Below are positions 1-6,000 of a stretch of DNA of 64,000 nt, piece by piece. A program made the position numbers. Every line of letters begins with the position of its first letter. Position 1 is the first letter of the stretch. The stretch spans positions 40,187 through 104,186 of the forward strand of contig JAUIER010000011.1 of NCBI GenBank assembly GCA_030429765.1, given 5' to 3'. The DNA is from a bacterium (GTDB taxonomy: Bacteria; Omnitrophota; Gorgyraeia; Zapsychrales; Zapsychraceae).

Positions 1-3000
1 GCTGTAAGCGATTGCGCGTAGTTATCCACCTTCATCTCAAACTGTGTAGCTGTTTTATTTCGAACCCGAACCTCTCTTTGAGTATTGGTCGTGACATCAT
101 ACCGGGCCGAACCAACAACAACGGGACTGACATAGGTATTATTAAAATTAATGGTCGTCCAGCTGTTATTCGTAAGACTGACTTTACCGAATTCTCCGAG
201 AACATTGGTTCCGTTGGCGTCAATGGTTAACTCTGGATAAGTCGAATATGAATTCAGGGCTGAACCGGCCACCGTATCGTAGAGCCGGAAACAATATGTT
301 TCACCGGTGATCGCGTCGTCGCCCGCTGTAATCGCGTATTCGATCTCAACCATTTCGTCATCATCCAGCGCACCCAGCGACCCGCTGGTATCCGATGAAT
401 CTCGCCCCTCACCGTTGATACGACTGAATCCCGATGGTAAAGATAAGAGTCCTGCCGTGGCCGACTCACCATCCGGGGAGATGTGGATCGAATCAACCAT
501 TTGAAATTCGTCCGCCGTGTCACCCACGCCGGTCCAGGTGCTGATCGCGGAACAACTGGTGACCTTGCGTCCGAATTCCAGCTCATATTGACGCGCGGCA
601 TCTTCCGCTTTGTTCCCCAAATTGGCCACGCCTATACGCACCCGGCGGGTGACTCCGCGATCGATTTGACCGATGGCGTTAGAATCCTCGATGGCGAGGG
701 TTCCCCCTACCGTATTTAGATCGGTGGAATCATCCCGCCAAATAAAATTCAATTGAGTGGTGTCTTCTTCGGCCATCGTCATGGCCGGTGCCGTCGCGTA
801 CCCATCGAGATCGACCCCCTCCAGGGCGTCGCGCACTCTAAAGCAATAGCGTGTCCCGTCCGTGGCGCTGGCTGTCGGCGTGATGCTGAACTCTAACTCT
901 GTACCCGTCGAGCCACCCAGCGGCCCGATGGATCCGGTTGTATCAGCAACATCTCGCCCCTCTCCGTTCGTAAAACTGTATCCCTCTGGATTTGATAGGA
1001 GCGTACCAGTGATTGATTGTCCATCTGCTATGTTGGCACTAGCGGAGATAGCAAATGCATCTGCGGCATTTCCAACACCGACGAAACTCACCGTAGAGAC
1101 GGCGGAACAGGCTCCGCCGCCTGAATCGGCCCATTGCAGTTCATACTGCCGAGCCGCCGACTCCGCACTATCTCCGGCATTTGCCACACTCAATCGCAAA
1201 CGATAAGTGATACCGTCCTCTGCCCCGTCATATTCTGTGTCCTCCGCGGCCAGATATCCGCCAGTCGTATTCAACGCCGTCGTGTCATCCCGCCAACGAT
1301 ACCGCAGCTGGCGTGTAAATGGTGTGCCCGGTGGTATAAACAATGTGTTCAAATTCACACCCTGAGCTGCCATGCGATCGCCTTGGTACGTCGAATCATC
1401 ATTCGTCGCTTCATTGATCTGGGTCAGCTGGACATATTGCGAATCCAATAATCCAGTCATTAGAATCCCGCCAGAGGACCCGCTCGTATAGGCATCTCCA
1501 CCGGTATCCTCATCCCCACGATTGTACTGTCCATGTCCGCCGTACAAATAAACTCCGGATCCATCCGTATCAGATCCTGCAGAACTGCTATTTTGCCATT
1601 CCAAGAACTGCGTTTCACGGTTCGTTCCGGCGCTCCCCGATCTGGCTGAATAAATCGAACTGAAGAAAAGATAGTCTCCATCCGATTCAATATTAATTCG
1701 TTCTGTATTTGTTGTATCATGGTCAAATGACGCCGAATCTTCCTCATCGGTGTTGTCCCATGTGATATTGGTTCGACTGGTGCTTAAGTCTTGTCCTCCG
1801 CCGTTCTCATGAAGTCGAATATAATCAGCGTCATCCGGCAGTTTGACAATAGACATGGCTGTTTCGGCCGCCGTGACCCGCAGTCCTGATGGAAGACTAA
1901 CTCCTTCGACCCGAATTTGAACTTTGAGATCCTGGTTCGAGGTGGTTGTCTCGATTATCCCCGCGTAGACCGCAACCGAATCTTCGGTTTCCTGTGAACC
2001 GCGCTGGTACCCGGTAATACGCGTCCCGATGATCTCAGCTCCATCCAATGTTAAACGAGTTTCAAGGTTTCCGCGATTCGTCGTATCACTCTGGTTAAAG
2101 CTAACATTGTAGGCGATCAGATAGTGTCCCTGCTTGGCCAAAGTAATTGTTGAACCGCTTCGTGAAAAGGTAGCTGAGTCGATCTCGTCATCCGTGGCCA
2201 AAGTCAAATCAATGAAGGTGGCGGAACTGAACGACTGATTGGATGTCGGACGCGTCCGTATATAATCCCATTTATCGTCCAGCTTGAGAACAGATATACC
2301 GGATTTATTCGCTCTGCGCCGGACAGGATCCGTATTATTTTCCGTGCGTTGCATTTGAATACGAATATCATCCCCGGCGGACACATCCAATATAGCCGCA
2401 CCCTGATTGTATCCTTCAAAGTTATTATTTTGCCGACGGATGTATCCCTGACCACGTCCATATGTCAGATCCGTTGCTGTAGTCACATTACGGATCCAGC
2501 TCTGCATCTCGGAACGATTGGTTCCCGACGTGGACTCCGTTGGGATGGAATACATCACCAGATAGTGCCCGCCCTCTTCCATGTCGATATCGAGGCTACC
2601 GCTAATGGAGAAGCTGCCGGACACCGAAACCTCGTCGTCCCACGTGATATCCGTCGCGGTCGTATTAATCGCGTCCAGCCCCGCAATGTCTTTGTATACC
2701 GCATAGTCACCGGCTGCACCCCAGGCGGCACCGGTAAGCGTGGCGATCAACAGCCACAATGACAATCCAAATTGTAATAGGCGTCTAAAGTTCATTACTA
2801 AAAAAAGAGCGCCGGATCGCGTAACTACGACCCATGCGCTCTGCGGGGATTTGTCCTTTTTGAATCCGTTTAAAAACAGCGATACGGCTAATACTAAGAA
2901 TTTCCGCAGCCTCAGCCACGGAGATGTATTCATCCGCCCGGTGTTTGGCCCGGGCTAAATCATGCCCGACCTGCGGAATATCCTCCCGGGCGATAACATA

Positions 3001-6000
3001 GTGACGTCCGACTTTATGTGCCCGAATTTTTCCCTGAACCACGGCCAGGTGAATAGTACGGCGATCTTGCCCCGTCACTTCCGCCACCTGCATGACCGAT
3101 AAATAGTCCGAATCAATCTGCGAATCATTCGGTGACGCTGAATCCAAATCACTTTTTGCGATGACGTAATGCCGTCCTACCCGTCTCGCCTTGAGCTGAC
3201 CGTTCCGTATTCGGGCTAGAATGGTCATCCGGTGCACATTCAGTAATTCAGCCGCCTCCATAACCGATAAATATTCCTCGAGCGGCAGCCGATGCCGAGG
3301 GAACAGCGGATACTGCTCCTCCACGTAGGAGCGCGGTATCGCGTAGCTGCGACCAATCTTGACCGCACGGATCTGACCTTTTTGAATACGCTTGCAGACG
3401 GCAACCACACTGATACCCAGAAACTGCGCGAGCTCAGTGGTCGAAATGTAGGCGTGATGCTGAGAGGACATGAAGACCTTGGTTAACAAAATCGATTTAA
3501 ATTAATCAATTATTAACTTTTTTGGTATAAATTTAGTTAACAATTGTCCATTATATAATCTATCATAAACGGATACCTTTACCTACCGAACTCTAGAAAA
3601 TATAGCTCATCGGGCAAGGGTTGAAGCTGAAACACTGCCAACACAATCATATGACTTTTTTCTACCTGACAACAAAACGCCCATAACATTGACCAGCCCA
3701 CACATCGAATTTAGGTAGACAGATCCCCATCAAAGTGTTACTCTAGGCGACTTATTGAGACCCTCTGAGGACGTCTCAACAAACGCGTAAAGTCAATGAT
3801 CACGCCCATTCTCGAAATCCGGACCATCGGAATTTCCTGTCGGTTTCACGCCTCCTATCAGCTTTTCGGATTGGCGAAACACTTTCGGCCTGGACAAAGA
3901 CTTTAGAAATCACTCTTTTAGTCTTAGTCGATTACCGATCTATTGTTTCAAGAGTTTAAGCCAAAATCTGATAATTTAAGGAAATGCGTGTATGTCTAAT
4001 CTATCATTTGAAGAACTGGGACTGTCCCCGGAAACGTTAAAGACCATCAAAGCCAAGGGTTTTGAAGAACCCTCTCCTATTCAGGAGAAAACCATCCCCA
4101 TTATTTTGTCGGGCACCGATGATATTATCGGACAGGCCCAGACCGGAACCGGAAAAACCGCCGCCTTCGGACTGCCGTTGGTGGAAATGCTGCAGGAAAA
4201 ATCCAAACATGTACAAGCCCTGGTCCTGACGCCGACCCGTGAGCTGGCCATTCAGGTCGCTGAAGAAATTCTATCGCTGAAAGGACGTAAAAAGCTGACG
4301 GTCCTGCCGGTCTATGGCGGACAATCGATTCAGCTTCAATTGCGCGGACTTAAAAAAGGTGTCGATATTGTCGTCGGAACACCGGGCCGTATCCTTGATC
4401 ATCTGAACCGAAAATCACTTAACCTGAAACACCTCACACATCTGGTCCTGGATGAAGCCGACGAAATGCTCAACATGGGCTTTCTGGAAGATGTTCAGCA
4501 GATCATGGATTACACGCCCGCGGAAAAACGCACCATGCTATTTTCAGCAACAATGCCCGCGCCGATCCTTCAGATCGCCAAGAAATATATGAACACCTTT
4601 CAGACGCTTAAAGTCACCCATGGCGAACTCACATCGAGCCGGACGGAACAGATATATTTTGAAGTGATTGAAGCGAATAAATTCGAAGCGCTATGCCGCA
4701 TCATTGATGTGGAAGAGGAATTTTATGGCGTGGTCTTCTGCCGCACCAAGGTCGATGTTGATCGGGTCTCCAATCACCTCAAAGACCGCGGTTATCCCTC
4801 TGACGCGCTGCATGGCGATATCAGCCAGGCGCTGCGTGAGAAGATCCTGACCAAGTTCAAAAACCGCCGGATCAGCATTCTCATTGCCACCGATGTGGCC
4901 GCCCGCGGGATCGACGTCCAGGACATCACCCACGTCATTAATTATTCACTGCCGCAGGATCCCGAGGCGTATGTTCACCGTATCGGACGGACCGGGCGCG
5001 CGGGCAAGACCGGCAACGCCATCACCTTTGTCACACCGGCCGAGTCACGAAAATTGCGTTTCATTCAGCGGGTGGCCAAAACCGATATCCGCCGGGAGAA
5101 ATTGCCCAAGGTCAAAGATATTATTAAACTCAAGAAAGACCGGATCTGTACACAACTGGAAACCAAGATCGAAGCCGGACTAAAGCCCGATTACATCAAA
5201 CTCGCCGAAGATCTGCTCGAACGAAATCAAGCCTCCGCCCTTCTGGCCGCGATGCTGCAGCAGACATACCGCAATGAATTGGACCCCAAGAGCTATTCGG
5301 ATATTGCCGATGCCGGTCCTGAAAAAAGCGGGACAACACGTTTGTTTGTCGGGTTCGGTAAGAAAAGCGGCTTAACCAACCGAAAGCTCGTCAACATCAT
5401 CAAGGAAAAGTGCGGTATCCCGGGTGAGAAAATCCATGATATTCAGATCCGCGATAACTTCGCCTTTATCAGCCTGCCGTTCGCGGACGCGGAGGTAGTG
5501 CTGGAATTCTTCCATAAAAACAAAAGTCGAAACGGCATGTACGTGACCAAGGCCAAGAAGGACCGGAATGCCTCACCCGGACGACCGGATAAGAAACGTT
5601 CTGGCGCGAAACGGGTGGATGGCAAGACATCTTTTGGAAAAGGACGACGAGGTAAGGCCGAGTTTCCCAAGGGAAACTTTCCGAAACGTCGTCGGAAGAC
5701 AAAATAGATTTGAAATCGAACTCGTAAAGTTTTAAATCCGCAGACCAGCCAGACGTCCGTTCGCCGGATCTTGGGGAGATTCGTCTTGAGGGGTATCGGT
5801 AAGACCGAGGATAAACGGCAGATTCTGTATCGGGGCGATATTGATGATGACCGGAACAAATCCTCCAACTTCCACGCCGGAGGCATTCCATGCTTCCGGT
5901 GTAAAGGCAAATCCCTCACCTTCACCCGAAATGTTCATTTCAACCATCGCCGAGTTCATATCAATCCCCCCGACCGGATCGGCGGTCATGGCCTTATCCG

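Follow-up and report, generated by a model that had tools for sequence, protein, structure and literature searches.

A four-domain HTH_17 protein paired with a secreted-protein gene in Omnitrophota: a candidate antitoxin-derived autoregulator and its predicted GTTAAC operator

Introduction

What might a chain of four DNA-binding domains control when its gene runs directly into that of a large secreted-type protein? The question is raised by a 64,000-nucleotide (nt) stretch of an Omnitrophota genome (GenBank assembly GCA_030429765.1, contig JAUIER010000011.1, positions 40,187 to 104,186; hereafter the window, whose own numbering is used throughout), in which a gene at 2785-3471 on the reverse strand encodes four tandem helix-turn-helix (HTH) domains of the excisionase type (Pfam HTH_17). 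Large or giant surface proteins are a signature feature of Omnitrophota genomes, and the large LamG-type surface proteins belong to a class of genes to which an attaching or predatory way of life in these bacteria is attributed. A search by terms of papers on Omnitrophota giant genes found no mention of an HTH or excisionase-type regulator.

We suggest, with a probability of about 0.65, that the protein is a single-chain autoregulator derived from an antitoxin, which would bind GTTAAC boxes at its own operon and would most likely repress it. The observations that carry this reading are the domain architecture, a conserved gene pair, a conserved DNA motif in front of the pair, and the co-occurrence of this motif with one type of recognition helix across phyla. 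The locus thus offers a candidate regulator for the large surface proteins of Omnitrophota, conserved and specific to its cassette, and with it an operator that is predicted precisely.

Domain architecture and gene pairing

The open reading frame (ORF) at 2785-3471 on the reverse strand is genuine according to the ORF listing and gives a product of 228 amino acids (aa). It starts with the ATG at 3471-3469, which the family alignment favours over a TTG at 3489, and ends with the TAG at 2787-2785. A first-pass annotation, made from the sequence alone, had read the product as four tandem excisionase-type HTH domains, and both profiles that it named for checking agree, each matching four stretches far above its curated cutoff: Pfam HTH_17 (PF12728) with E 8.9e-37 and 125.6 bits against a cutoff of 27, and TIGR01764 ('excise', 'excisionase family DNA-binding protein') with E 1.5e-44 and 150.1 bits against 28.8. 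On the reverse strand, the domains D1 (residues 7-51, at 3319-3453), D2 (residues 66-110, at 3142-3276), D3 (residues 122-166, at 2974-3108), and D4 (residues 181-225, at 2797-2931) are separated by linkers of 14, 11, and 14 aa. Pairwise identity among them is 31-60%, with D1 and D4 as the top pair (60%). The recognition helix of D4, ISRIAVFKRI, is canonical at all ten positions, and that of D1, ISVVAVCKRI, is of the same canonical antitoxin-like type, with 8 of 10 positions as in helices of the ISRIAVFKKI type. The helices of D2 (VHRMTILARI, 4 of 10 positions canonical) and D3 (QDRRTIHLAV, 2 of 10) have diverged.

The co-oriented downstream gene, whose 5' part occupies 1-2795 on the reverse strand, extends beyond the window. 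Its ATG (2795-2793) and the stop codon of the HTH gene (2787-2785) overlap by 11 nt, as had been annotated. The encoded protein begins with MNFRRLLQFGLSLWLLIATLTGAAWGAAG, which is signal-peptide-like by a crude heuristic, and continues with three BclA_C/C1q-like repeats of about 150 aa, whose match to BclA_C is weak and below the cutoff, followed by 'YRWRDD' beta-sandwich repeats. Of the giant secreted protein proposed in the first-pass annotation, the signal-peptide-like N-terminus stands; the size does not, because the complete protein (P0190) has 1336 aa and is better called large.

This arrangement is conserved. At all 18 loci with the four-domain gene that were examined, a secreted-type gene follows directly, at a distance of -11 to +107 nt, and the stop and start codons of the pair overlap at 12 of them. 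On these grounds, the co-transcription that the first-pass annotation had claimed for the two genes is judged likely. The partner proteins of the 18 loci have a positively charged and then hydrophobic, signal-peptide-like N-terminus; where complete, they span 149 to 6306 aa, the majority being longer than 350 aa. Any domains that Pfam recognises in them are Laminin_G_3, DUF2341, or Pentaxin. The partner proteins are related to one another as mosaics; the first 490 aa of the window protein, for instance, share 35% identity with the partner protein of another locus (L004). The other flanking genes vary between the homologous loci. Two separate cassettes are found on one 2-Mb contig, and a tandem arrangement on one contig consists of an HTH gene (P0008) with a 6306-aa LamG protein followed by an HTH gene (P0003) with a 3114-aa LamG protein (L173 10001-20744 and L009 1-18008; JGI Ga0131077_10000372), which suggests cassette duplication. 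The association is one-directional only, because homologs of the secreted protein (50-51% identical) occur at two loci, L174 and L175, that have no HTH gene; a reciprocal pairing was rejected on this ground.

A conserved leader with GTTAAC boxes

We aligned about 100-110 nt upstream of the start codon from the 18 four-domain loci. The leaders form a sharp phylogenetic footprint amid otherwise unalignable DNA, with the order TGnTAnnnT, Box 1, an AT-rich spacer of about 20 nt, Box 2, and Box 3. In the window, where all of these elements lie on the reverse strand, the extended -10-like element TGATAGATT (TGaTAGATT; consensus TGnTAnnnT) at 3557-3565 is a predicted promoter; its position in the leader alignment is shared by 16 of the 18 loci, whereas the pair L019/L171 differs. 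Box 1, CAATTGTTAAC, lies at 3536-3546, roughly +4 to +14 relative to the predicted start of transcription, with its hexamer GTTAAC at 3536-3541. This hexamer is near-invariant (GTTAGC in two loci); other clades have GTTAAC-N4-GTTAAC here, and the window box is the right half of that palindrome of 16 base pairs (bp). Box 2, GTTAATAATTG, at 3507-3517, is an inverted copy of Box 1 located 24 bp downstream, measured from hexamer centre to hexamer centre; its family consensus is GTTAA(C/T)AATTG, and it is missing in the L019/L171 clade. Box 3, GTTAAC at 3482-3487, precedes the ATG by 10 nt and so falls in the stretch in which a ribosome-binding site would be expected. It is near-invariant as well (GATAAC in L013) and is found 6-27 nt before the start codon across the loci.

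Individual leaders contain one to four exact GTTAAC hexamers, or three to five when one-mismatch copies are included. In 17 leaders (2210 nt) we counted 49 exact hexamers, against an expectation of 0.42 from the rest of the loci or 0.65 from the base composition of the leaders; the loci are not all independent, and the excess is still overwhelming. In the 64-kb window, GTTAAC occurs at chance level (11 against 8.8 expected), and nowhere except in the leader do two hexamers fall within 60 nt. Secreted-protein homologs without an upstream HTH gene served as a control and likewise lack GTTAAC clusters. The canonicality of the four recognition helices and the number of leader hexamers are correlated across the 18 loci (Spearman 0.66-0.71), with few independent clades underneath.

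The conserved cluster strongly suggests multi-site recognition of DNA, the candidate hexamers being grouped as 16-bp palindromes or inverted pairs beside the extended -10 element. The first-pass annotation had expected four adjacent sites and had looked to four phased direct repeats in the spacer at 3490-3991. Multi-site recognition agrees with the cluster, whereas the number does not, as the window has three strong hexamers; moreover, these are palindromic and confined to about 3480-3550. The direct repeats of the spacer amount to weak two-copy families (19 nt, 3864-3901, 74% identity) and were rejected as binding sites because none is kept in the homologous loci. Three other matches to the 11-nt box, at 221, 35492, and 57154, were judged to be due to chance, each being single and having one mismatch; two lie inside coding sequences, and one abuts a start codon.

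It could be argued that the protein is a global architectural or nucleoid-associated regulator, similar to BldC or to an Xis filament, and that the site before the secreted-protein gene is one of many targets. The single domains are indeed nearest in fold to BldC, a cooperative binder of direct repeats, and our site search covered 64 kb of this genome only. However, apart from the leader, the window shows no enrichment of GTTAAC, and the 11-nt box is matched there only by the isolated copies just described. The pairing at 18 of 18 loci, together with paralogs that each have their own secreted-protein gene, points instead to local, cassette-specific control, and we consider a global role unlikely.

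Single-domain relatives in Doc toxin modules

The canonical recognition helix is not restricted to the four-domain family. We retrieved loci solely by the peptide pattern [IV]SR[IV][AS]VFK[KRQ][IV], which carries no DNA criterion but was itself derived from D4, an ascertainment with which the following counts should be read. HTH_17 proteins with a single domain and a length of 80-101 aa account for most of the retrieved loci; they come from Patescibacteria, Elusimicrobia, and, in some cases, Omnitrophota. In more than 100 of them, the 16-bp palindrome GTTAAC-N4-GTTAAC lies directly upstream of the gene. Among 98 non-redundant single-domain loci, 92 carry two or more hexamers in the 130 nt before the gene; the 98 loci hold 67 perfect 16-bp palindromes, with a dominant spacing of 10 bp, and 284 hexamers against 1.65 expected. 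In recurrent layouts such as 22-10-22 or 19-10-19, four hexamers extend over TTGACA and TATAAT-like promoter elements, and one locus (L050) has three palindromes with a period of 29 bp. The best identities to these single-domain relatives are 69% for D1 and D4, 51% for D2, and 49% for D3; the two domains with the canonical type of helix are also the closest ones.

The next gene encodes a Doc/Fic toxin in 88 of the 98 loci, mostly at a gap of -8 to +11 nt. The toxin has about 140 aa and the motif HPFQNGNKR, and it scores 53.8 bits against a cutoff of 38.65 with TIGR01550 ('death-on-curing family toxin') and 43 against 24 with Pfam Fic. The single-domain relatives are thus antitoxin-position proteins of HTH_17-Doc modules. 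They carry a C-terminal tail of about 40 aa, whereas the four-domain protein has just 3 residues after D4 and therefore no toxin-binding tail. These two-gene modules (loci L017-L169, for example L020 5950-6300, L028, L035, and L050) have 2-4 GTTAAC hexamers each. With their common operator they are widespread in Patescibacteria, Elusimicrobia, and Omnitrophota and apparently undescribed: the literature searched held nothing relevant on HTH_17- or excisionase-type antitoxins of Doc.

Given these relatives, the four-domain protein might itself be a functional antitoxin of a toxin-antitoxin pair or, as its profile name implies, a recombination directionality factor of an integrated element. Besides the TIGR01764 match, it is in favour of such a role that Xis of phage Pukovnik is the only sequence match among solved structures (E 7e-4) and that the nearest single-domain relatives stand in the antitoxin position beside Doc toxins. 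At the sequence level, the boxes at 3482-3546 also form a candidate palindromic operator at the predicted promoter of the protein's own gene, as expected of an antitoxin. However, the gene directly downstream encodes the 1336-aa secreted protein and not a toxin, the partner at the other loci is always a secreted protein as well (149 to more than 6300 aa), all six reading frames of the window lack a Fic/Doc motif, and the C-terminal extension that would neutralise a toxin is missing. As for excision, an adjacent integrase, which the first-pass annotation had named as the sign of a conventional mobile-element excisionase, was looked for as well: profile scans of the ORFs in window 1-26 kb found no integrase or recombinase, and neither did the gene tables of eight homologous loci within 8-10 kb on each side. 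The context therefore contradicts a conventional mobile-element excisionase, and we regard both of these roles as very improbable.

Structure models and the nature of the site

An AlphaFold2 model based on the family alignment has a predicted local distance difference test (pLDDT) value of 86.4 and a predicted template modelling (pTM) score of 0.51, with the lowest confidence at the D2-D3 linker. It consists of four beta-alpha-alpha-beta-beta-alpha units, which is the winged-helix (WH) arrangement of the Xis/MerR type. The single domains superimpose on BldC and Pukovnik Xis with a root mean square deviation (rmsd) of 0.9-1.1 Å, and the best multi-domain structural match of the full model is TraN from plasmid pIP501 (TMt 0.64, rmsd 3.1 Å, 116 columns). 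Neither of two further families accommodates the protein. The C-terminal coiled-coil domain used by MerR-type proteins for dimerisation and effector binding is absent from the 228-aa protein in the profile scan and in the model, and the boxes of the window follow the -10 element instead of occupying a 19-20-bp promoter spacer, as MerR-family operators do. The equivalog profile of the magnetosome protein MamR (NF040990) gives 71.2 bits, a sum over three repeats of the shared HTH, where at least 100 are needed.

The position of the boxes raises another possibility, that the leader acts as RNA, with GUUAAC hairpins in the 5' untranslated region controlling translation or stability and the winged helices possibly binding RNA. 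Box 3 sits at the expected ribosome-binding site, and since all boxes follow the predicted -10 element, they are probably part of the transcript. The leader of the window has a folding energy of -17 kcal/mol (z = -3.0), with a stem between Box 1 and Box 2, and a fragment of SelB, whose four WH domains bind SECIS (the selenocysteine insertion sequence), is among the top Foldseek matches of the whole model. A gene for a GAF-GAF-ANTAR protein is also found directly upstream of the four-domain gene in L007, L012, L015, and L172. However, when the 18 leaders were folded together with RNAalifold, just the invariant hexamers paired, at -1.55 kcal/mol and without covariation, and we therefore take the sequence rather than the structure to be conserved. 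A scan of 3300-4100 against Rfam at E up to 1 returned no match, Box 2, one arm of the stem, is missing in the L019/L171 clade, and the SelB matches reach TM scores of 0.15-0.17 only. In the single-domain relatives, the palindrome overlaps the sigma-70-like promoter elements, as a DNA operator would, and the 10-bp spacing of the half-sites matches the helical repeat of DNA. In addition, the HTH_17 relatives with solved complexes (Xis, BldC, and TraN) bind double-stranded DNA. An RNA-based mechanism is therefore rather improbable.

Proposed regulation and origin

We propose that the four-domain protein binds the GTTAAC boxes, which start a few bases past the predicted transcription start, and would thereby autoregulate the bicistronic operon, probably as a repressor that occludes the promoter or early elongation. 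The operators of toxin-antitoxin systems act in that way, and so does TraN. The regulator would be translationally coupled to the secreted protein, and its level would report the output of the operon; through this coupling it could serve as a negative-feedback limiter on a costly secreted product. Binding itself, the assignment of domains to sites, the stoichiometry, the sign of the regulation, the signal for its relief, and the limiter function are points that we infer from sequence comparison.

With regard to origin, the autoregulatory DNA-binding domain of the antitoxin-position HTH_17 proteins paired with Doc may have been the source. Four fused copies would then provide one polypeptide in place of oligomerisation on a multi-hexamer operator, and the toxin-binding tail and the toxin would have been lost on the way. 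The family might in this manner represent a toxin-antitoxin DNA-binding module exapted and multiplied into a single-chain multi-site regulator. A bolder version, which we put forward tentatively and would not yet bet on, is that an antitoxin domain was quadruplicated with its operator kept and the toxin lost, and now forms a coupled feedback governor of large or giant LamG-type proteins (up to more than 6300 aa) in Omnitrophota. It would include possible cross-repression of toxin-antitoxin promoters, since HTH_17-Doc modules of this phylum and of co-occurring members of the Candidate Phyla Radiation have the same operator.

Several points weigh against the autoregulator that we prefer. The four-domain protein contains no sensory domain that could explain relief of repression. 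The promoter and the transcription start were assigned by consensus only, and a sigma-70 consensus scan did not call the extended -10 element, because a -35 element is lacking. The window clade offers two exact GTTAAC hexamers and one GTTAAT for four domains, of which D2 and D3 have diverged helices. With hexamers 24 and 30 bp apart in the window, linkers of 11-14 aa would be stretched to their limit unless the DNA bends, and one chain may therefore not contact all sites. The inter-domain geometry of the model is of low confidence (pTM 0.51 for the full protein, 0.45 for D1-D2), and when D1-D2 was modelled alone, a packing like that of TraN was not recovered (TMt 0.38, rmsd 11 Å). Finally, the small number of independent clades also limits what the correlation of helices and hexamers can say.

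Distribution of the family and tandem HTH_17 arrays

Among 5.8 billion proteins, a search found 53 relatives with lengths of 143-254 aa, of which the shorter are truncated; identity to the query is 36-76% over the aligned part and 42-58% for near-full-length matches. The named relatives are all 'excisionase family DNA-binding protein' from metagenome-assembled genomes of Candidatus Omnitrophota. The first-pass annotation had left the repeat number of homologs to be checked: in the family alignment (A1, 27 members), the full-length members are collinear across all four domains, and the linker lengths are kept, the first linker having 14 aa in 26 of the 27. When one genome per species was considered (185,579 species), full four-domain relatives were found at 8 loci only, seven labelled Omnitrophota and one a Planctomycetales bin.

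The four-fold array had been presented as unusual, and this was overstated. Run exhaustively against 1.84 billion representative proteins, HMMER produced 535 matches (15 at E <=1e-30), many of them multi-domain, and the sampled ones include HTH_17 arrays of up to eight domains (eight in P0054, five in P0096). Since arrays of five and eight domains and the two-domain TraN exist, the tandem HTH_17 architecture is uncommon, yet not unique; the searched literature contained nothing relevant on tandem HTH_17 arrays. The uncharacterised HTH_17-array proteins P0054, P0096, P0072, and P0058 include one of 479 aa with eight domains and one of 981 aa with five, and in the same group sigma-70 (regions 2-4) is found fused to C-terminal HTH_17 domains.

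Genomic neighbourhood

The divergent DEAD-box helicase that the first-pass annotation had noted is present at 3992-5707 on the forward strand (profile scan); its C-terminus is of the DbpA RNA-binding type, with a tail that is highly basic. This neighbour is not kept in the homologous loci. The roughly 430 bp that separate it from the predicted HTH promoter contain a GC hairpin near 3752-3782 besides the 19-nt two-copy tandem at 3864-3901. A second DEAD-box helicase gene lies within 20 kb of the first, at 21858-23189 on the reverse strand. At four of the homologous loci (L007 8625-9857, L012, L015, and L172 6594-7829), the gene directly upstream of the four-domain gene encodes a GAF-GAF-ANTAR protein, of the RNA-binding antiterminator type. 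This neighbour occurs in at least two subclades, is absent from the window, and may be a trace of an ancestral gene order or add a further level of control on the leader.

Further large genes are found on the reverse strand of the window. Those at 5732-8809 and 52763-57382 encode proteins with a homologous N-terminal region of about 150 aa that has no Pfam match and contains the common motif …LIKYF.A.LT.PE..MWVNLSP.E..RIIPD.FG.T.MGRDLLA.D; the first product has 1025 aa and a C-terminal HATPase_c domain, and the second has 1539 aa and an epimerase domain. Two very large genes, at 8909-13909 and 13909-20880, abut each other, their stop and start sharing position 13909. Their products are a 1666-aa protein with a C-terminal subtilase domain (Peptidase_S8) and a 2323-aa protein without a Pfam match.

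Comparison with known systems

According to the literature, TraN is a monomer with two tandem excisionase-like winged HTH (wHTH) domains in one chain; it inserts its two recognition helices into neighbouring major grooves of an imperfect inverted repeat and is a repressor of the operon that encodes it (PMC6158623). The protein, from the Enterococcus plasmid pIP501 (PDB 4pm3/4p0z), resembles the four-domain protein in placing tandem excisionase/MerR-like wHTH domains on a single polypeptide, and its operator, in which two inverted half-sites are spaced by about 10 bp, resembles the palindromes described here. However, TraN has two domains and only 12-13% identity to the four-domain protein, its operator is asymmetric and unrelated in sequence to the GTTAAC boxes, and it controls a conjugation system.

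The single-domain HTH_17-Doc proteins are closer in sequence. They share with D1 and D4 the helix ISR[IV]AVFK[KR]I, and GTTAAC hexamers with the palindrome stand before their own genes. They consist of one domain and the tail of about 40 aa and are encoded with a Doc toxin, whereas the four-domain protein has no tail and a secreted partner.

BldC of Streptomyces and the Xis proteins (lambda, Pukovnik Gp37) have the single-domain fold seen in D1-D4. In these systems, several domains on adjacent sites build a nucleoprotein array. They do so as separate monomers arranged head-to-tail on direct repeats, whereas here four domains are covalently linked and the candidate sites are palindromic; furthermore, Xis acts together with an integrase, and the four-domain protein has none nearby.

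The Phd/Doc system is similar in that an operon-encoded DNA-binding protein acts on a palindromic operator over its own promoter, which for the four-domain protein is predicted. It differs in that Phd is not an HTH_17 protein and is regulated through the ratio of toxin to antitoxin, and no toxin is encoded here. Autoregulatory winged-helix regulators as such are thus known; what is distinctive here is the single chain of four domains, the proposed antitoxin ancestry, the predicted operator, and the link to the secreted proteins of Omnitrophota.

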